Shown piece after piece: positions 22,968-52,863 of a stretch of DNA of 64,000 nt. Source of the stretch: Escherichia phage ST2; the sequence record OM982647; one strand, 5' to 3'. A program made the translations under genes and the position numbers. A model generated the notes under the pieces. The model made no database searches. It worked only from the letters and a program-made list of their open reading frames with translations, and was not told where the DNA came from. The stretch's first letter is position 1. Each line of letters opens with the position of its first letter.

Positions 22968-23324
22968 TTAACCCCGGAGTTTATTGAGCTCTTCATAATC
23001 AATCCAGGATTCTAGCCCTGACGGCAGGTCACATTCAATGTTCCACAGAAGCTCTTCAATGGCTTGCAGGCGATTATATTCTTCAACGGTAATGGTAACC
23101 ATTGGTGCAACCGGTTCTGCCTTTTTAACCATCATATCGTTCATCAGGACGTAAAGGTCATCACGAACGACAGTGTCGTTCCAACCCCATGATTTGGCTT
23201 CGTAAGCTAATGATGAAGGGAGCACATTTAAAACTTCAATAATAGTTGGAGCATCAGGACCAAGTTCATTGGCACAAACTTCGTATACATCTTGGAAATC
23301 TTTAAGATTTAATGAATATGTCAT
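22968..23324 (-). CDS. hypothetical protein
   Basis: 118 aa track ORF. Confidence 0.5.
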   Translation of the reverse strand: MTYSLNLKDFQDVYEVCANELGPDAPTIIEVLNVLPSSLAYEAKSWGWNDTVVRDDLYVLMNDMMVKKAEPVAPMVTITVEEYNRLQAIEELLWNIECDLPSGLESWIDYEELNKLRG

Positions 23325-23584
23325 TTAAAATATTCTCGTAGTTGGTCAAAGCCACCGATCGAAGTTCCATCAGGAGCAAACACCTGAGGCATCGTCAATC
23401 CAACATGTGTTTCACGTCCAAGCTTAGCCAGAAGCTCAGCAATTTTCTCATCATCAAAAACACCTTTTTCTGGCATAACATTAATGAATTCGAATGGCTG
23501 TTTCTTAACAGTCAGCAATCGTTTCGCATTATCACAATAAATGCATTTATGAATAGTAGAGTCATACCCGTACACTTTAAACAT
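23321..23584 (-). CDS. nrdC: glutaredoxin/thioredoxin NrdC
   Basis: 87 aa; CIYC redox motif; T4 NrdC-like. Confidence 0.9.
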   Translation of the reverse strand: MFKVYGYDSTIHKCIYCDNAKRLLTVKKQPFEFINVMPEKGVFDDEKIAELLAKLGRETHVGLTMPQVFAPDGTSIGGFDQLREYFK

Positions 23585-23990
23585 TATTTTTCCTTTCGTC
23601 GATTAAATATGCAACGCCAAATACAAAACATGTAATAAAACCTGTGATACAGATAGAAACCAACAACACTGTACCAAAGAACCAAATCAGGTTATCTTTA
23701 GTAGTTTGTTTGATATCCATCTCACGAATTTCTATAGCTATCGTATCACCTTTATTCAGAAGCGTATAAAATGATGGAGATACACGCCTGTCAAAAACTC
23801 GTCCTTGCTCATCTTTATAGACTGCAATAAATTCTAATTTAGAATATTTTCCTGTAGATTGACCTGAGATTAATTCCACTACCTCCACAGGAATTACTTT
23901 AGTTTCCATGTAAGTATTCTGGCTGTTCCAAATGAATGGAATAACAGCAAAAACTAAAGCTGCGATAAAACAACGAAGGCTATATCTCAT
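23577..23990 (-). CDS. hypothetical membrane protein
   Basis: 137 aa with N- and C-terminal hydrophobic helices. Confidence 0.5.
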   Translation of the reverse strand: MRYSLRCFIAALVFAVIPFIWNSQNTYMETKVIPVEVVELISGQSTGKYSKLEFIAVYKDEQGRVFDRRVSPSFYTLLNKGDTIAIEIREMDIKQTTKDNLIWFFGTVLLVSICITGFITCFVFGVAYLIDERKNNV

Positions 23991-24295
23991 TATAATGTTC
24001 TCTCAAATTTGTGGAAGCATTTACGGCATTTCAATTTCAAGTTATCAGTGGTCCAGTTAACCAGTTGGACTTGGATAGTTCCACATTCCGGGCATGGATG
24101 TTTTGCTGCCGATTTGGCAGCATTTTCACGTCGTTCAACCATTTTCATTATTTCGTTCCATGCCGGAGGAACGAACTCTTCTTCACCGTGGATTTTATCT
24201 CGTTGAACAAATTCAATCTTTGAACTATCGTCAATAAACTTAACCAAGCTGTGATTAGTGCTCATATCAATATCCTCTAAAAGACGTAGTTTCAT
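23990..24295 (-). CDS. zinc-ribbon protein
   Basis: 101 aa; CPEC ... CRKC. Confidence 0.5.
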   Translation of the reverse strand: MKLRLLEDIDMSTNHSLVKFIDDSSKIEFVQRDKIHGEEEFVPPAWNEIMKMVERRENAAKSAAKHPCPECGTIQVQLVNWTTDNLKLKCRKCFHKFERTL

Positions 24296-25245
24296 TATAA
24301 CACCTCAATGGCATTTCGTAAACCATCCGCTTTTGCATTCAGAGCTTTTAATGATTTAGTTTGTTCTGCAATCTGGGCTTCGACTTCTTTCAGACGAGAT
24401 TTGAGATATTCGCGTTCTTCTCTTAAGTTATCAACTTTTTCTGCTTTAGGCTCTTTAATAGGCTTAGGCTTATACTCGTTAGGGTTCTTCAACTTAATTT
24501 GAATGCGAGAACTGTATAACATTGAGCCATTATCTTCGGTTTCATCATACATTTCCACTACATCCATAATTTTTAGCATCATACGAAGTTTATAAGACAG
24601 CGAACGAACGGTTTTGTTGCGCTTATTAATTTCTTCGGCTTTCATAGTACCGAGATTACGTGAGTAGTAATAAGGAACCTGGATATCAATTGACAATGAT
24701 GCGTTACCATTACCAGTTGGTTTGAATACTGCAGTAACCCAATCTTTAACATGAACTTTATTTGTACGGTCATCGCCGCCTGTGAATAATTTACATGAAT
24801 GTTTAAAAAGCATATTCACTTGGTTATTGAATTCACAAGCAAATTTATCAGCAAATTTAGTTTCAGGAATGGTAGAGAACCAATCAGCCAAATGAGTCTT
24901 TTTAACATCATTAACAATAGTGAATTCAACCAAATCGGTTTTAGATGTCACAGATTTAATAAAGCTCGGTTTCATAAAGTTTTTAATGTTATCGCGAGCT
25001 ACAGTAGAAGATAATAAACGAGAACGTTTGAACCATTGAAGCAGCGTCCCTAATGAATGAGAATACGCATTCTGAGTATCTTTACAGATATGATTTTCTT
25101 GACCTGTGTATGTACCAAAATCTCGAAGAATGCCACTTACTACAACTCGGTGTGGAACATCAAATCCTAATGAACCAGAAGCACGTTGGGCATGAACGTT
25201 AGCGATAAGGCCTGCAAAGTATTCAATGTAATGTGAACGTGTCAT
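24295..25245 (-). CDS. hypothetical protein with C-terminal coiled coil
   Basis: 316 aa; heptad-like C-terminus. Confidence 0.55.
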   Translation of the reverse strand: MTRSHYIEYFAGLIANVHAQRASGSLGFDVPHRVVVSGILRDFGTYTGQENHICKDTQNAYSHSLGTLLQWFKRSRLLSSTVARDNIKNFMKPSFIKSVTSKTDLVEFTIVNDVKKTHLADWFSTIPETKFADKFACEFNNQVNMLFKHSCKLFTGGDDRTNKVHVKDWVTAVFKPTGNGNASLSIDIQVPYYYSRNLGTMKAEEINKRNKTVRSLSYKLRMMLKIMDVVEMYDETEDNGSMLYSSRIQIKLKNPNEYKPKPIKEPKAEKVDNLREEREYLKSRLKEVEAQIAEQTKSLKALNAKADGLRNAIEVL

Positions 25246-25273
25246 AATATTTTCCTCTCGTTAAGATAGAAAG

Positions 25274-25303
25274 ATTATACTCCAACCATCCTTGGTTGTA
25301 AAC
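25274..25303 (-). promoter_or_regulatory. early promoter GTTTAC-N18-TATAAT with spacer hairpin
   Basis: Minus strand GTTTACAACCAAGGATGGTTGGAGTATAAT. Confidence 0.55.
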
Positions 25304-25307
25304 TGAT

Positions 25308-26240
25308 TTATGATTTTAATGCATTCATTGCGTTAAAAAGTTTAGAGTACTGCAACTGGAGCTTGGTAACTACTTGTTGAGCATCACGAAGCTTAGCTTG
25401 TGCTTTGTCAAGTTCAACAGACAGTTGGTCCACAGTGGCCTTGATTTGATTATAATAGTAATCTTCGGCAGGAAGAAGACCGTTAGAGATTTCCAGTTTA
25501 GTCGACGGTGTGCCGTTAAACATAACAGGTTGTGCTGAAGCTGCATTAATCTTACCGATAGTCGGGTCGACAATAATTGACGCTTCGAACATTGCATTTT
25601 CCTTTTTAAGATTTTTATAATATTCAGAGTCTTTGTGCCACCATGGCGCAGGAACCTTTTTACCAATAGATACACGGGCCTGGATAGCGATATGGCCCTT
25701 ATTCTTGATAAGGTCGATAATATTAAGCTCACGAGAATAAATCGCTTTAATCTGGTGGATATTATCACCTAAAACTTCCAACGCTTGGTGGAATACACGA
25801 GCAACGTTATCATTCTTAGGTTTATACGTAAGAGTAAACTCATTCTCACTGATAACCATGATTTCTAACTTATCGTAAGTATATTTCAAATGTTTCATGT
25901 TAATTGCTTGAGGACGAATACGAGAAGCAATGGCCATCAGATTGTTAAGGTTATTTCTGAACTGTTTAGCAAAATATTGCCCGGTGCCGCCGATACAAAA
26001 ATTACGAAGTTTCTGTTTGGCTAATAAACGGCTGAACTCACCATTTTTAATGAACTCTTTAACGGGTGTGTTGGTAACGCATTCAAATTGAGTAAACTTA
26101 CGAGAAGTAATCCCATAATATGAACAGATTTCCTCAATCTCTTCAGGAGTCTTTACAGGCATACGGATAGGATTAGGTCCTGGAGTATATGCGTTCGAGG
26201 TAAATTCTTTGATAAGTTCTCTACGTGTAATAGAAGCCAT
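25308..26240 (-). CDS. hypothetical protein with C-terminal coiled coil
   Basis: 310 aa. Confidence 0.55.
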   Translation of the reverse strand: MASITRRELIKEFTSNAYTPGPNPIRMPVKTPEEIEEICSYYGITSRKFTQFECVTNTPVKEFIKNGEFSRLLAKQKLRNFCIGGTGQYFAKQFRNNLNNLMAIASRIRPQAINMKHLKYTYDKLEIMVISENEFTLTYKPKNDNVARVFHQALEVLGDNIHQIKAIYSRELNIIDLIKNKGHIAIQARVSIGKKVPAPWWHKDSEYYKNLKKENAMFEASIIVDPTIGKINAASAQPVMFNGTPSTKLEISNGLLPAEDYYYNQIKATVDQLSVELDKAQAKLRDAQQVVTKLQLQYSKLFNAMNALKS

Positions 26241-26266
26241 TTTATATTCCTCATGTTGAAAAATTT

Positions 26267-26296
26267 ATTATACTCCAACCATCCTTGGTTGTACAT
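26267..26296 (-). promoter_or_regulatory. early promoter, near-duplicate of 25274-25303
   Basis: Minus strand TGTACAACCAAGGATGGTTGGAGTATAAT. Confidence 0.55.
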
Positions 26297-27294
26297 CATT
26301 CCTTAAGAAGTTTTACTACTTGAATAAGATTAGCTCGTTCTGTTTTATTTTTACCGTTTAAGCCTGCTAATCGTGAGATCTCATCGTCAGTCTGTTGAAT
26401 AGTTACATTAAGTTCGTTAATCAAAGCTTCAAAGTATTTGATTTGCTCAGCATGTTTTGATTCAAATTTCTGAACCGGAATAACGTCTTGGTTTAGTTCA
26501 TCAATAAGGTCTTTAAGAGCATCTTCTTGGTTGATATCATATTCAACTTCTTTTATTTCTTCAACGAGCTCGTCTTTATATCTAACGTCTTTTAGTCCTG
26601 GTGCGGGCCCGGAAATCTCTTCTTTAAGAGTACAAACATACCCAATATGGTATCCAATACCCAGGAACGGCTTGATATCAACTTCGTCGATAAATCCACA
26701 ATGTTTAAGACCAGAGCCGATTAGGTCAAAATATCCTTGACGTCGTCCTTCAAACGTTACACGAACTACTAAGACGGTTTTACCTGCAACCTTTTGAAGC
26801 TCACATTTATAAAAGTCAGTTGAACCTGAATAACGTGGATGAGTTTTAAAGTTCATCTGACGATCTAGGCCCATTTGTAAACGTGCTGTTACGGCCATAA
26901 AACGTGTTTGGTTCTCGTTAAGATGAGCAACAATCTGTTTCAAAGGCATTTTACCCTGTTCACGACCGAACAAATCAGTACGTCCTAAATTACGCAAGAT
27001 GTTGTTAGAGTTAATCATCGACAGAACGTTAAGTTTATTCAGCGCGCTGAAGATTCCATCAACCATTGATTTTCCGTAACCTTTACACGCTTTAATAAGC
27101 GCTCGCGGTAGATTAGTATAGATTTCAGACGGCATATGAAAATCAAATTTTCTAACCAGTAATTGATGAACTTGGATAGCAATTTGCTCATAATTAAGTG
27201 CTCTGCGATCGTTATGGTCTTTAAACCACACTTTAATCTGTGAAGCACATAAACCGTTAATTTCATGTTTTACCGCATCAGATGTAATGCTCAT
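26296..27294 (-). CDS. hypothetical protein with C-terminal coiled coil
   Basis: 332 aa. Confidence 0.55.
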   Translation of the reverse strand: MSITSDAVKHEINGLCASQIKVWFKDHNDRRALNYEQIAIQVHQLLVRKFDFHMPSEIYTNLPRALIKACKGYGKSMVDGIFSALNKLNVLSMINSNNILRNLGRTDLFGREQGKMPLKQIVAHLNENQTRFMAVTARLQMGLDRQMNFKTHPRYSGSTDFYKCELQKVAGKTVLVVRVTFEGRRQGYFDLIGSGLKHCGFIDEVDIKPFLGIGYHIGYVCTLKEEISGPAPGLKDVRYKDELVEEIKEVEYDINQEDALKDLIDELNQDVIPVQKFESKHAEQIKYFEALINELNVTIQQTDDEISRLAGLNGKNKTERANLIQVVKLLKE

Positions 27295-27329
27295 AACTAT
27301 TTCCTCAGATTGAATTGGAACTCAAAACC

Positions 27330-27353
27330 ATTATAACCCGTCCTTGGGTAAAG
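27330..27353 (-). promoter_or_regulatory. early promoter CTTTAC-N-TATAAT
   Basis: Minus strand CTTTACCCAAGGACGGGTTATAAT. Confidence 0.45.
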
Positions 27354-27356
27354 CGT

Positions 27357-27884
27357 TTATGCGTGAACCGTCTTTAAACGTTCTTTAAATTTCCGAAGAG
27401 TACTAATACGTTCTGCTTTCTGTTTTGTATAGTTTGCAATACGTTCTGAAGTGAGAGCGTATCGTTCGTTTACTGTTTCTTTCATGAAGTCAGGGATTTC
27501 ACGAGAAGCTTTAATTTCATCAAACTTATCGAGTACCGCCTGGTCTTCAGCGATTAAATTTTCGTACATCTCGATATCTTTCTTGATAAACTCGATATCT
27601 TCCTGGGTTACTTTGGATAAACGAGATGCTTTATCCTTTTTGTACTGCTCGTTAGTTTCACGAGACCAGAATAATGTACGTTTTTTGTTAGTGTTTTTGT
27701 AGACTTCCACAATTCCAACTGAATCGATGATAACAATCCAATTCCAGCGAGATTTGAAAATCTGACCTCCGTCCACGGTAATCTCGTTACCATAAGCAAC
27801 GTCATTAAAGAACTTGCTTTGTGCTTCAGATTTAAATTTACCGTCGTTATAATTTATCAGGTTGAAAATATCTTTAGCGTTCAT
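27357..27884 (-). CDS. hypothetical protein
   Basis: 175 aa. Confidence 0.55.
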   Translation of the reverse strand: MNAKDIFNLINYNDGKFKSEAQSKFFNDVAYGNEITVDGGQIFKSRWNWIVIIDSVGIVEVYKNTNKKRTLFWSRETNEQYKKDKASRLSKVTQEDIEFIKKDIEMYENLIAEDQAVLDKFDEIKASREIPDFMKETVNERYALTSERIANYTKQKAERISTLRKFKERLKTVHA

Positions 27885-27911
27885 GTTTTACCTCCAGTAG
27901 TTGATAGGTCT

Positions 27912-27940
27912 ATAATAACATAACCATAGACCTTGTAAAC
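27912..27940 (-). promoter_or_regulatory. early promoter/stem-loop cassette
   Basis: Minus strand GTTTAC-N17-TATTAT with AGACCTAT inverted repeat. Confidence 0.45.
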
Positions 27941-27942
27941 AA

Positions 27943-28230
27943 CTAAAAGAAACTTTTTTCGGTATTTTTTCCACTGAACCAAACAGACTTCGGGATTTTT
28001 TGTAATTTTTCAGATTTAAGTTTCTCTTCCAGTTCTTTCTTATATACACCCTTGTCATACTGGAGCATCTCTATGGCATTCTTTTGCAAATGATCTAAGG
28101 TAATTAAGGCTTTAGTTTTTCCTTTCAAGGAAGAGTCCTGGCGAACATCCTCGCTATATTGCATCGTAGAACTAACCATACGATGAGCATACAGTTCTAC
28201 TGCGGCTTTAATTTTTTGCATAAAATCCAT
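27943..28230 (-). CDS. hypothetical protein
   Basis: 95 aa. Confidence 0.5.
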   Translation of the reverse strand: MDFMQKIKAAVELYAHRMVSSTMQYSEDVRQDSSLKGKTKALITLDHLQKNAIEMLQYDKGVYKKELEEKLKSEKLQKIPKSVWFSGKNTEKSFF

Positions 28231-28368
28231 AACATATCCTCTTTGATTTGTACATCGTTATTTTTAAATATTTCTATGCCCTCAGTAGGTTCCTGGTGTC
28301 CTTCTTTGAGGTAAGCCATATGATTATTCATCTTTATGGCTTTTGTTACCTCAGAACTTCCTATAAGC

Positions 28369-29370
28369 TTATTTCAGTAAAGTTACTTCAGAGATTTCCT
28401 CCCAACCATCTTTATCAGTTGAAATAAAATCTGCTACATAAAGAGCCGTACGTAATGATACATTGCGAAGACGAGATACGTTAGCCTTCATCCAAGACAA
28501 TGCTTTATACGTTTCTGCATCAGTCAGACCACGTTTCTGCATCATGTCAGTAGATAATATTACATCTTCAACTCGAACCATAATCTCTTCATTAGAGTGT
28601 ACTCCAAGGTCGAGATACACTGAACGAGATACTAAAGCTTGAAGGTGTGGAGCAAGTTTAGAACCGCGTTCTAACTCTTTATCGATATCAACATTTGTAA
28701 TGAAAACGATAGTACCTTCAAACTCAAATTCTTTATCAATACCCTTATCATCGAGATAAGATGACGCAGTGCTCCAGCAAACTTTGCGTTTATCACCGGT
28801 ATCTAATGCTGCTTTAAGAAGGTTCAAGATGTCCATATCTGAGAATACGTCAACGTCGTCGATTAAGAGAACGCTGTCTGCATCACGGTTGAGCCAAAGT
28901 TGTTCGTAAAGACCAATACCAGAGATTTTACCATTAATGCTTTTGTATTTGATGAAACCATTATCATTAGCATTATTAAGTGCTTTATCCAGAGAATACG
29001 TCTTACCAATACCAGCTGCACCTGAAATAATGAGTGAACGAATTTTGCCATCGATAATGCCATTCGTCATCATGTTCATTACTTTAAAGCGTTTGTTGAT
29101 ACGAGTTTTCATATCTTCAGTGCTTTCAACAACTGCAACTGGTGATGTCTCAACTCCTTCCATTACGATGTCTGATTTGAAGACCCATACTCCACGTTCA
29201 GAACCATCAATCATAACGAAAATTTTACCATCACCTAAGTGGGAACATTCAGGATTAAGCTTTGCCGGGAACCAGGTCTTTGTGGCAACATAAGAACCAG
29301 AGATTTCGTTATTACGATAGATACCTTTTTTGATTTGAACGTTGAACATTTTATTCTCCAATTTACTCAT
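28369..29370 (-). CDS. AAA+/P-loop ATPase
   Basis: 333 aa; Walker A GAAGIGKT, Walker B LLIDDVD. Confidence 0.7.
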   Translation of the reverse strand: MSKLENKMFNVQIKKGIYRNNEISGSYVATKTWFPAKLNPECSHLGDGKIFVMIDGSERGVWVFKSDIVMEGVETSPVAVVESTEDMKTRINKRFKVMNMMTNGIIDGKIRSLIISGAAGIGKTYSLDKALNNANDNGFIKYKSINGKISGIGLYEQLWLNRDADSVLLIDDVDVFSDMDILNLLKAALDTGDKRKVCWSTASSYLDDKGIDKEFEFEGTIVFITNVDIDKELERGSKLAPHLQALVSRSVYLDLGVHSNEEIMVRVEDVILSTDMMQKRGLTDAETYKALSWMKANVSRLRNVSLRTALYVADFISTDKDGWEEISEVTLLK

Positions 29371-29379
29371 TTTGTTTCG

Positions 29380-29418
29380 ATAGGTCTATAATAACATGTT
29401 TAAAGCAAAAGTAAACAA
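29380..29418 (-). promoter_or_regulatory. early promoter/stem-loop cassette
   Basis: Minus strand GTTTAC-N17-TATTATAGACCTATC. Confidence 0.45.
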
Positions 29419-29637
29419 TTATTTGCGACGAGATTTTTTGGTAAGAGGTTTAAAGAACACTGCTTTACCGGCTGGGGTTAAGGTGACTCGTAATGCATTA
29501 CCTATTCCTAAGGATGCTTTAACCAAACCTTTAGCTTTCAGTTCACCGAATGCTTGACGTTGGTCTGCATCACGAGTGTTAACCATAAGACCTTTATCAC
29601 CTGCTTCACGAATCATTTCTAACATTTTGGTTTTCAT
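29419..29637 (-). CDS. hypothetical protein (72 aa, possible winged helix)
   Basis: ATG 29635-29637 (MKTKMLEM) after GAGGAGAA. Confidence 0.5.
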   Translation of the reverse strand: MKTKMLEMIREAGDKGLMVNTRDADQRQAFGELKAKGLVKASLGIGNALRVTLTPAGKAVFFKPLTKKSRRK

Positions 29638-29649
29638 TTTGTTCTCCTC

Positions 29650-29692
29650 TTGTTTTGATAGGTCTATAATAACATATCCTAAAAGTATGTAC
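29650..29692 (-). promoter_or_regulatory. early promoter/stem-loop cassette
   Basis: Minus strand TGTACA ... TATTATAGACCTATC. Confidence 0.4.
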
Positions 29693-29700
29693 ACTACTTT

Positions 29701-29738
29701 TTAAAAATATTTTTACCCCCTAAAGGGCCCGAAGGCCC
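29701..29738 (-). terminator. terminator-like hairpin
   Basis: GGGCCTTCGGGCCC followed by T-rich tract just after stop of 29742-30731. Confidence 0.4.
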
Positions 29739-29741
29739 TTA

Positions 29742-30731
29742 TCATTTATAGTATGAATTGTGGTTTTCTAAATAGACTTGCTCAAGGAAATCATCCCAGA
29801 AACTCATATCTACTTTTTGTTGCATACCGTTCTTAGCGGCTTGTTCCGATGCTTGTTCAACTTGGCCAACGATATCTTCTAGGAATTCTTGTACAGTTTT
29901 AAACGTATGTTTACCAAGCTTAACATCGAGAATAAATGGAGCATCCTGAAGTGGGTAAACCAGGTCGCCGGTTTTGTAAATTTCCAATAGTTGAAGTCCA
30001 CCACGACATGCATGACTCAATGCTTTCCAGTCAATACCTTCGTTAGCTTCTGCCTTACGAGCACGTTCGCCATAGTTCTCTTCTAGTTTAACCAGGATGG
30101 CATTGAACTCTTTATTGGTTAATGTGTCTTGGAATTTACGGTCTAACAGATTATAGAATGTTTGCTTACCTGTTTTCTCGTTTTCGGTTTCAACCCATGA
30201 AGCAAATTCACCTATAGGCAGAACATTCTTCATATGTGATAAACGAATTACTGCACCGTTATCAAAGTATTGTCCCCATTCATTAGAACGTTTAAGGGCT
30301 TGACGAAGAACAGCCAGTCGAGAACCCTTGACACCATATTTAGAAGCTTGCTTACGGACATACCCTAAATAAGATTTCATGTTAGTGGTATAGAAACGAG
30401 ACCTGTTATCTTGAATATACTTCCATACATCAGGCAAATCAGATTTAACTACTAGACTTTGTGGAGTGTGAAGCATATCTAATGCGACGGTTTCACCAAC
30501 CGCAGCTAGTTTAAAGAAATATTTGAGACTATATAACTCATGGTCCACGTCGTCTTTTGTGTTCTTCGAAGCAGTGTTGTTAGTGTTCTTGCTCATATGT
30601 TCTTTAACGTTACCAGTCAAGATATCACGAGCATGAGGGACATAAATTTCTTTAAAATCGACGTCAGATTCAGGAGTAGACGTTCCATAAAGGTGGCTAC
30701 CAAAGTAGCCTTTCATAATTGTTTTCATCAT
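29742..30731 (-). CDS. nucleotidyltransferase-fold protein
   Basis: 329 aa; GSHLYGTSTPESDVD (GS-x9-13-DxD pattern). Confidence 0.55.
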   Translation of the reverse strand: MMKTIMKGYFGSHLYGTSTPESDVDFKEIYVPHARDILTGNVKEHMSKNTNNTASKNTKDDVDHELYSLKYFFKLAAVGETVALDMLHTPQSLVVKSDLPDVWKYIQDNRSRFYTTNMKSYLGYVRKQASKYGVKGSRLAVLRQALKRSNEWGQYFDNGAVIRLSHMKNVLPIGEFASWVETENEKTGKQTFYNLLDRKFQDTLTNKEFNAILVKLEENYGERARKAEANEGIDWKALSHACRGGLQLLEIYKTGDLVYPLQDAPFILDVKLGKHTFKTVQEFLEDIVGQVEQASEQAAKNGMQQKVDMSFWDDFLEQVYLENHNSYYK

Positions 30732-51812: not shown

Positions 51813-52100
51813 TTACAGAAGAGTTTTTGCAATAATTTTAAGCTGAGCTACAGAAATATGCTTAGCTTTAAACAGTGCGGTCTCTTCAGCCGGAGAGATA
51901 ACAATAGTAGCGCCGTCTTTCTTAGCAGACCATCCGTCCCCTAAGTAAACAGTACCTTTTACTTCTTCACCGTCAACCAGACTAATCATTGGTTTACCCT
52001 CACGTCCTTTATTTGTTTTAATAACTTCAGAAGTAAGGGATGCTTCGGTCAGAGTAGAAATGTTAGCAACAGGTGATATAAATTCTTTATAGGTTTTCAT
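51813..52100 (-). CDS. internal protein candidate at the IPI locus with CTS-like leader
   Basis: N-terminus MKTYKEFISP...; adjacent to 57B as T4 ipI. Confidence 0.6.
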   Translation of the reverse strand: MKTYKEFISPVANISTLTEASLTSEVIKTNKGREGKPMISLVDGEEVKGTVYLGDGWSAKKDGATIVISPAEETALFKAKHISVAQLKIIAKTLL

Positions 52101-52121
52101 TTTATTTCCTTGAGGCTGTTT

Positions 52122-52165
52122 ATTTGATAGGATGATAGTATCACACCATCATCCTTATGTAAACC
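52122..52165 (-). promoter_or_regulatory. early promoter GTTTAC-N18-TACTAT with AGGATGAT/ATCATCCT inverted repeat
   Basis: Minus strand GTTTACATAAGGATGATGGTGTGATACTATCATCCT. Confidence 0.45.
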
Positions 52166-52177
52166 GTTTTGTGAAAA

Positions 52178-52863
<686 letters not shown>

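Follow-up and report, generated by a model that had tools for sequence, protein, structure and literature searches.

The best-studied relative of the genes considered here is nrdC.5 of phage T4, the one member of its group for which activity against a host defense gene has been published. A T4 clone with deletions failed to plate on ECOR17 and plated again once dsr1 was deleted from ECOR17; cloned dsr1 protected MG1655 from the T4 deletion clone, and nrdC.5 supplied in trans restored infection (PMC9391042, Srikant 2022). Dsr1 carries a SIR2 domain and is presumed to deplete NAD+ (PMC9391042). A second phage protein of interest is DSAD1, an SPbeta-type phage inhibitor of DSR2, which reportedly neutralizes this SIR2 NADase defense protein by direct binding (PMC10973363 and others). 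The third relevant system is formed by the PeSLs, short conserved early promoters combined with a stem-loop (TTTACW-N17-TAYWAT for the T4/PST pair), which concentrate in hyperplastic regions and lie at junctions of insertion, deletion or replacement (PMC2839356, PMC4122927). Against this background we examined a block of four consecutive open reading frames (ORFs), encoding proteins of 316, 310, 332 and 175 amino acids (aa), at positions 24295-27884 of a 64,000-nucleotide stretch of the sequence record OM982647 (Escherichia phage ST2), which as a whole is referred to as the window.

From profile and motif comparisons, the 316-, 310- and 332-aa proteins are predicted to be tandem distant paralogs of one small superfamily that is restricted to T4-like phages and also includes nrdC.4 and three further ORF clusters (c46, c71 and c40). 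Judging from the sequences and by analogy, we estimate a probability of roughly 0.55 that these three paralogs act as pre-replicative, non-enzymatic counter-defense proteins whose genes are exchanged at promoter cassettes. The window belongs to a Tequatrovirus, a T4-like coliphage, and the 3.6-kb block matches 577 phage records, the top ones being Tequatrovirus at 97% identity. Every gene of the region is on the minus strand. An earlier note, made from the letters of the window, had described the four ORFs and their position in the hypervariable nrdC-tk region; the coordinates proved exact, and the block is adjoined by nrdC at 23321-23584. In comparison with close relatives, all four genes have a ratio of nonsynonymous to synonymous substitution rates (dN/dS) of 0.08-0.22 (0.08-0.10 for the 316-aa gene), therefore they are real coding genes that are maintained as proteins. 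Each of the four proteins falls into a PHROGs family of unknown function. As far as can be read from sequence comparison, the block is a local haplotype of the T4 nrdC.3-nrdC.8 accessory region. It differs from T4 in lacking nrdC.4, for which no homolog is present in the window when its proteins are compared with the annotated T4 genome by BLASTP, and no further paralog or block repeat occurs elsewhere in the 64-kb window.

The 310-aa gene (25308..26240) links the block to a published activity. Its product matches the Pfam family DUF7235 over the full length of the model (E 1.9e-111, 372.8 bits with a cut-off of 30, model positions 1-307 of 307), and T4 NrdC.5 matches the same family (5e-126, 420.6 bits), while the 316-, 332- and 175-aa proteins have no match to DUF7235 at E<=1 and none in the local copy of Pfam. 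The 310-aa protein shares with T4 NrdC.5 its position in the nrdC region, its length class and the tail motif QxxKLxxAxxAL, and its RB69 homolog is annotated as NrdC.5. It differs in being a divergent allele of another class: the two proteins are 22% identical over 292 aa by BLASTP, and about 22-26% overall. The allele of the window is present in ~132 phage records at an identity of at least 78%, and 12 more records carry a homolog at ~23%. We found no literature on DUF7235, and no later work on NrdC.5 and Dsr1, beyond Srikant 2022; the other mention of the protein concerns a point mutation of NrdC.5 in a T4(C) revertant.

The genes on both sides of it have T4 counterparts as well. The 316-aa gene (24295..25245; phrog_1435, with PF26897 in the precomputed annotations of its homologs) is an allele of T4 nrdC.3, with 56% identity between the proteins and a weak additional match to NrdC.4 (E 9e-5, BLASTP). 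Its homologs, found in 653 phage records, fall into three identity bands (149 at 90-99%, 357 at 60-80% and 140 below 60%). The 332-aa gene (26296..27294; phrog_2257, with PF26899 in the precomputed annotations of its homologs) is a nrdC.6-like paralog, in which the N-terminal 127 residues are 39% identical to T4 NrdC.6 by BLASTP. Its homologs are bimodal, with 150 records at 95-99% identity and 587 at ~33% (below 60%). The three paralogs thus form sharply separated allele classes with few intermediates, and NrdC.8, in contrast, is conserved. Divergent allele classes with few intermediates are what would be expected of genes engaged in an arms race, and selection inside an allele class is purifying, as the dN/dS values given above indicate.

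With 57 more residues than T4 NrdC.6, the 332-aa protein keeps a C-terminal tail that is frameshifted in the T4 reference. The annotated 3' end of T4 nrdC.6 (L001 11990-12250, corresponding to ~51990-52250 of the T4 record) encodes a frameshifted tail ending …EELIFLFNNMMMKFSDYLD, and another frame still encodes an unbroken conserved tail (…ISIQQYDDEIFRLSGLSSKAKSEREKLIKIVDLLKS), which reaches the ribosome-binding site of nrdC.5. An unbroken nrdC.6 tail is present in the metagenomic relatives P0112 and P0122. The frameshift in T4 is either a mutation of the laboratory strain or a sequencing error. RB7 and RB9 differ by two nonsynonymous changes, one of which is in NrdC.4.

In order to relate these proteins to one another, we extracted the interval from nrdC.10 to nrdC from 19 T4-like contigs of IMG/VR, clustered the ORFs and enriched the resulting alignments with database homologs. 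This slot always contains 1-4 proteins of ~260-390 aa. In T4 these are NrdC.3, NrdC.4, NrdC.5 and NrdC.6, the window and an RB69-like group have three each, and other groups have a single protein from cluster c46, c71 or c40. Profile comparison with hhalign joins NrdC.3 to NrdC.4 with a probability of 97.9%, NrdC.5 to c46 with 91% (199 columns), c46 to the NrdC.6-like cluster with 79% (175 columns) and c46 to c71 with 73%. When the profiles are merged, the group made up of NrdC.5, c46 and the NrdC.6-like cluster matches the group made up of NrdC.3, NrdC.4 and c71 at 96.8% (E 2.6e-10, 167 columns). Among the controls, NrdC.8 remained below 1.5% in pairwise comparisons and below 1% against the merged profiles, and the nrdC.10 and c12 clusters did not exceed 0.7% in the first round. 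Two further links connect the same clusters: DUF7235 matches the last ~65 residues, and no other part, of c46 and c71 (at 2e-7 and 2e-6, respectively), and some c46-type proteins bear the NrdC.3-type family PF26897 in precomputed annotation.

An alignment of 23 representatives of the superfamily has three common features, namely motif 1 (approximately FK-S-R-LLS...A...L-NFG), motif 2 (approximately LLALGARL--G--R-M-FKT) and a tail that starts with P-x-E and ends with Q-R-x-K-L-x-x-A-x-x-L-K. Both motifs and the tail are shared by the T4 NrdC.3, NrdC.4 and NrdC.6 proteins and are present in the 332-aa protein, and they are kept across clusters that have otherwise diverged past detection by BLAST. 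A profile search of 1.84 billion representative proteins returned 21 clusters at E<=1e-3, of which 14 reached E<=1e-10 and one looks like a false positive caused by a repeat protein. The named members all come from T4-like phages of Enterobacterales (for example, Pectobacterium phage PM2 and Klebsiella phage F48) or from contigs of ~170 kb. The grouping of NrdC.3, NrdC.4, NrdC.5 and NrdC.6 with three further clusters into one superfamily that has a homologous tail is new here.

Alignments and structure models suggest a common layout for the members, in which the alpha/beta N-domain is variable and the C-terminal heptad helix of ~50 residues is homologous; the linker that joins the globular part to this tail is hypervariable and changes more than any other segment. 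The helix of the 316-aa protein occupies residues 267-316 (24298..24447, minus strand). Its heptad score over residues 267-314 is 0.82 against a shuffle 95th percentile of 0.70, AlphaFold2 predicts a helix at 269-315 (mean predicted local distance difference test, pLDDT, of 72-91 in blocks of 10 residues), and the segment aligns with the other tails of the superfamily. In the 310-aa protein the helix occupies residues 257-310 (25311..25472, minus strand), with a heptad score of 0.90 and residues 258-310 above the shuffle 95th percentile; AlphaFold2 predicts a helix at 257-309, which comprises the sole confident residues of that model (block means of 54-88). The tail of the 332-aa protein is borderline by heptad score (282-310), yet it aligns with the other tails. 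The 175-aa protein scores 0.70 against a threshold of 0.72, which is not significant. The coiled-coil tails that had been attributed to all four proteins are therefore retained for the 316- and 310-aa proteins, are borderline for the 332-aa protein and are lost for the 175-aa protein, and the single architecture proposed for the four does not extend to NrdC.8.

Remnants consisting of the tail alone are found in unannotated DNA of two phages. The one in ACG-C40 (NC_019399.1, 47515-47652) is 85% identical to residues 271-316 of the 316-aa protein, and the one in Pinarejo (PP925831.1, 50021-50155) is 60% identical to residues 287-331 of the 332-aa protein. They suggest breakage or recombination at the point where the tail-coding segment starts.

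The complete structure models are weak. AlphaFold2 gave a mean pLDDT of 40.5 for the 310-aa protein (28-sequence alignment) and of 58 for the 316-aa protein (38-sequence superfamily alignment, predicted template modeling score 0.50). The single long C-terminal helix is the best-supported part of both models, in which the order of elements is similar (helices, three strands, helices, tail helix), with an extra pair of strands ahead of the tail in the 316-aa model. Searches for remote homologs, which the earlier note had recommended, yielded the profile links described above and no informative fold match: Foldseek returned just uncharacterized proteins of T4-like phages from BFVD (template modeling score <= 0.27) and no match at E<=1e-3 from the PDB. 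A sequence search of the PDB with the superfamily profile drew sub-threshold GCN4 and prefoldin coiled coils to the tail and nothing else, and NCBIfam and PADLOC likewise yielded no more than coiled-coil noise below threshold. The statement that the proteins lack recognizable catalytic motifs stands, as Pfam, NCBIfam, PADLOC and the PDB sequence search revealed no such motif or enzyme family, and no conserved pattern of His, Asp, Cys or Ser is visible across the 23 aligned representatives.

The genes of the block are accompanied by repeated promoter cassettes. An exact direct repeat of 27 nt, of which 0 are expected by chance, is located at 25274-25300 and 26267-26293, upstream of the 316- and 310-aa genes, respectively; this is the pair of cassettes that had been noticed earlier as nearly identical. 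The repeat covers most of the -35 hexamer, the spacer and the -10 hexamer of two putative early-type promoters on the minus strand, TTTACA-17-TATAAT (25274..25302) and TGTACA-17-TATAAT (26267..26295). Within the spacer of both is the hairpin CAACCA-AGGA-TGGTTG (25283-25298 and 26276-26291). The 332-aa gene has no -35 hexamer at the proper spacing and instead carries a MotA-box-like AAACGCTTTA 13 nt upstream of TATAAT (27330..27358, minus strand), with the hairpin ACCC-AAGGAC-GGGT (27336-27349) in the 13-nt spacer. The MotA box consensus is (a/t)(a/t)(a/t)TGCTTtA, located 12+/-1 bp upstream of a good -10 (PMC2988021), and on this basis the gene is behind a predicted MotA-dependent middle promoter. 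The middle cassette overlaps the stop codon of the 175-aa gene and is a homolog of the cassette upstream of T4 nrdC.7. The block is thus predicted to have three early-type sigma-70 promoters, including that of the 175-aa gene, and one middle-type promoter, so the early promoter that had been assigned to every gene is kept for all except the 332-aa gene. Sigma-70-like sites in the region are not more numerous than in shuffled sequences (33 vs 38.7), therefore these promoter calls rest on position, conservation and published consensus.

The spacer hairpin follows the pattern xxxCCA-AGGA-TGGxxx and was found in nine distinct versions in the window, T4 and other phages. Across these versions pairing is kept in 90.7% of cells (65% in shuffles), double-sided changes number 12 (4.0 in shuffles), one pair is seen as AU, UA, CG and GC, and 0 of 500 shuffles reach the observed covariation score; the versions are few, and the sequences used for the test are also those from which the structure had been derived. 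In every tested context the minimum-energy fold is this hairpin, whose stability is ordinary (z -0.3 to -1.7), and Rfam shows no known RNA family in 23000-30000. It is located 10-15 nt past the upstream stop codon, so read-through transcripts would contain it. GGAG, the RegB motif, follows it in the early-type copies, and no T-run follows the hairpin at either cassette of the 27-nt repeat. It might protect a 3' end, serve as a processing signal or take part in recombination. A spacer hairpin of this kind also occurs in T4 (L001) upstream of nrdC.3, nrdC.4 and nrdC.7.

These cassettes resemble the PeSLs (Arbiol 2010; Comeau 2014) in being repeated early promoters of a hyperplastic region that stand beside variable ORFs and at mosaic junctions. 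They differ from them in three respects: the stem-loop is inside the promoter spacer, whereas in the published layout it is upstream of the promoter as a terminator, the loop is a constant AGGA, and in one copy the underlying promoter is of the MotA (middle) type. Between 25098 and 27326 the window has no nucleotide similarity to T4; the similarity is back at ~27326, the location of the middle-promoter cassette, and the early cassette also precedes unrelated genes in other T4-like contigs. The cassettes are thus putative PeSL-type mobile elements at a mosaic junction, and the junction at ~27326 suggests recombination. The match to PeSLs, the variable content of the slot and the resumption of T4 similarity all agree with the set of shuffled cassettes that the earlier note had offered as one explanation of the block. 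The placement of the promoter cassettes at a mosaic junction and the covarying hairpin within the promoter spacer are new here.

Taken with the T4 phenotype, these observations suggest the following mechanism. The three paralogs would be expressed before replication of the phage DNA. Their divergent alpha/beta N-domains would bind and neutralize a host immune protein, or mask its trigger, rather than catalyze a reaction, while the conserved amphipathic C-terminal helix may oligomerize the protein or dock it on a common partner. Each paralog and allele class could be directed at a different host defense, and within the family the 310-aa protein would be the counterpart of T4 NrdC.5, which acts against Dsr1. 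PeSL-type cassettes would delimit the units in which the genes pass from phage to phage, and recombination there would produce new combinations. DSAD1 serves as a model for the proposed binding by analogy; it differs in that its target is DSR2, whereas NrdC.5 counters Dsr1. The anti-defense module of the earlier note thus receives indirect support for the 310-aa gene, through DUF7235 and the action of T4 NrdC.5 against dsr1, and the 316- and 332-aa genes are connected to it as distant paralogs. The homology to the T4 nrdC.x genes is clear, and no housekeeping function is known for any of them.

Several observations weigh against counter-defense proteins exchanged gene by gene. The functional datum is limited to T4 NrdC.5, which is as distant from the 310-aa protein as stated above. 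When hhalign compares the NrdC.3 cluster directly with the NrdC.5 cluster, the match is not significant (0.4%), so the link from NrdC.3/NrdC.4 to NrdC.5/NrdC.6 depends on merged profiles and intermediate clusters. The whole 3.6-kb block is found at 95-99% identity in ~140 records, and its conservation as a unit in those records indicates recent inheritance by haplotype and not by single genes. With the weak models and uninformative fold searches, a cryptic enzymatic or nucleic-acid-binding fold is possible. Finally, the proteins are basic (pI, the isoelectric point, is ~9.4 for two of them), which also fits nucleic-acid binding. A DNA-mimic role was rejected because the proteins are basic.

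A first alternative is one that we consider unlikely: the paralogs could be host-takeover factors, basic early proteins that bind host nucleic acid or the transcription or translation machinery, with the coiled coil providing dimeric binding, and that help in shut-off or redirection of the host and not in countering immunity. Somewhat less probable still is a conditional role, such as superinfection exclusion, competition with satellites or prophages, or growth in a particular physiological state, with the effect on Dsr1 as one special instance. Many conditional genes do reside in the hypervariable accessory regions of T4-like phages (PMC4122927), and restriction of the superfamily to T4-like phages of Enterobacterales is compatible with competition within that group, but the sole member tested, T4 NrdC.5, acts against a host defense gene. 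Selfish ORFan cassettes, persisting through movement of the cassettes in PeSL mini-circles such as have been described (PMC2839356) and without benefit to the phage, are very improbable, for although repeats flank the genes, cassettes occur at other genes and in other genomes, and the tail-only remnants and the frameshifted T4 nrdC.6 speak for occasional decay, the genes are under purifying selection (dN/dS 0.08-0.22), form full-length ORFs in hundreds of genomes, conserve motifs across clusters that BLAST no longer connects, and include NrdC.5 with its demonstrated function. The remaining probability goes to functions other than counter-defense and these three alternatives.

If the three paralogs do act in counter-defense, the block can plausibly be described as an anti-defense gene array, which would not be new in kind. 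A wider proposal, which we regard as tentative and rather doubtful, is that nrdC.3, nrdC.4, nrdC.5 and nrdC.6, together with their relatives in T4-like phages of Klebsiella, Enterobacter, Serratia and Pectobacterium, form a modular counter-defense platform, in which a constant tail is combined with rapidly replaced N-domains, each specific for another host immune sensor, and new specificities arise by recombination at hairpin cassettes, in a manner comparable to integrons. In this view the conserved polar positions of the tail (Q-R-x-K-L-x-x-A) would point to a partner common to the family and not to a generic zipper. If the paralogs prove to be counter-defense proteins that differ in their targets, the allele present in the slot would help to predict which E. 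coli strains can be infected by a T4-like therapeutic phage. The superfamily would then also supply several natural variants for working out how NrdC.5 neutralizes Dsr1, and the association of cassettes with a junction adds a concrete case to the PeSL model of accessory gene swapping in T4-like phages. The catalogued T4 ORFs, the hypervariable region and the mobile promoter cassettes were already known, a protein identical to the 310-aa protein is in GenBank (phage ST2), and the anti-defense role has been published for one family member, so current concepts are unchanged.

The fourth gene of the block, 27357..27884 on the minus strand, is the ortholog of T4 nrdC.8 by ORF, BLASTP and synteny. 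The proteins are 82% identical over 175 of 175 residues, and, read along the transcript, the gene follows the nrdC.9 homolog. NrdC.8 is found in 745 records, mostly at an identity of at least 80%. It was rejected as a member of the superfamily, since its hhalign probability is below 1.5% to every superfamily cluster, and by sequence comparison it is a separate, conserved and predicted early protein that is unrelated to the other three. A 175-aa protein of Klebsiella phage KPV15 is among the BFVD matches, and no Klebsiella phage is among the organisms listed by tblastn as having a NrdC.8 homolog. In T4, the Shine-Dalgarno GGAG of nrdC.8 is cut moderately by RegB (PMC1702504). The nrdC.8 mRNA is lower in DRT1-expressing cells according to a 2026 paper, in which the gene is named nucleotide reductase (PMC13275509), a label that we reject as it is without any sequence support.

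Two neighboring features complete the comparison with T4. A homolog of nrdC.7 at 23577-23990, a predicted membrane protein 43% identical to T4 NrdC.7, is directly beside nrdC and not upstream of nrdC.6; in T4 the gene is between nrdC.8 and nrdC.6, and the order in the window is a rearrangement within the hyperplastic region. In many deposited genomes all these ORFs are labelled "thioredoxin", apparently by propagation from the gene name nrdC, and no thioredoxin signature was found in any of them.

The putative early-type promoter of the 175-aa gene, TTTACA-16-TG-TATTAT (27912..27939, minus strand), belongs to a second cassette family. The -10 region of this gene is part of the family, named D1, which has three copies at 27901-27959, 29377-29435 and 29655-29713; these are positioned upstream of nrdC.8, upstream of nrdC.10 and ahead of a 91-aa ORF (29419-29694), and they share ATGTTATTATAGACCTATC(A/G)A, that is, the -10 and bases downstream of it. 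Yet another type of cassette is found in more distant T4-like phages (L011-L016), where early promoters are enclosed by the arms of a longer inverted repeat (GGTGTAGGA … TCCTACACC), which extends across the -10 region; this promoter-in-hairpin arrangement is present in many copies per locus (for example, at ~12772 in L013 and ~12986 in L015).

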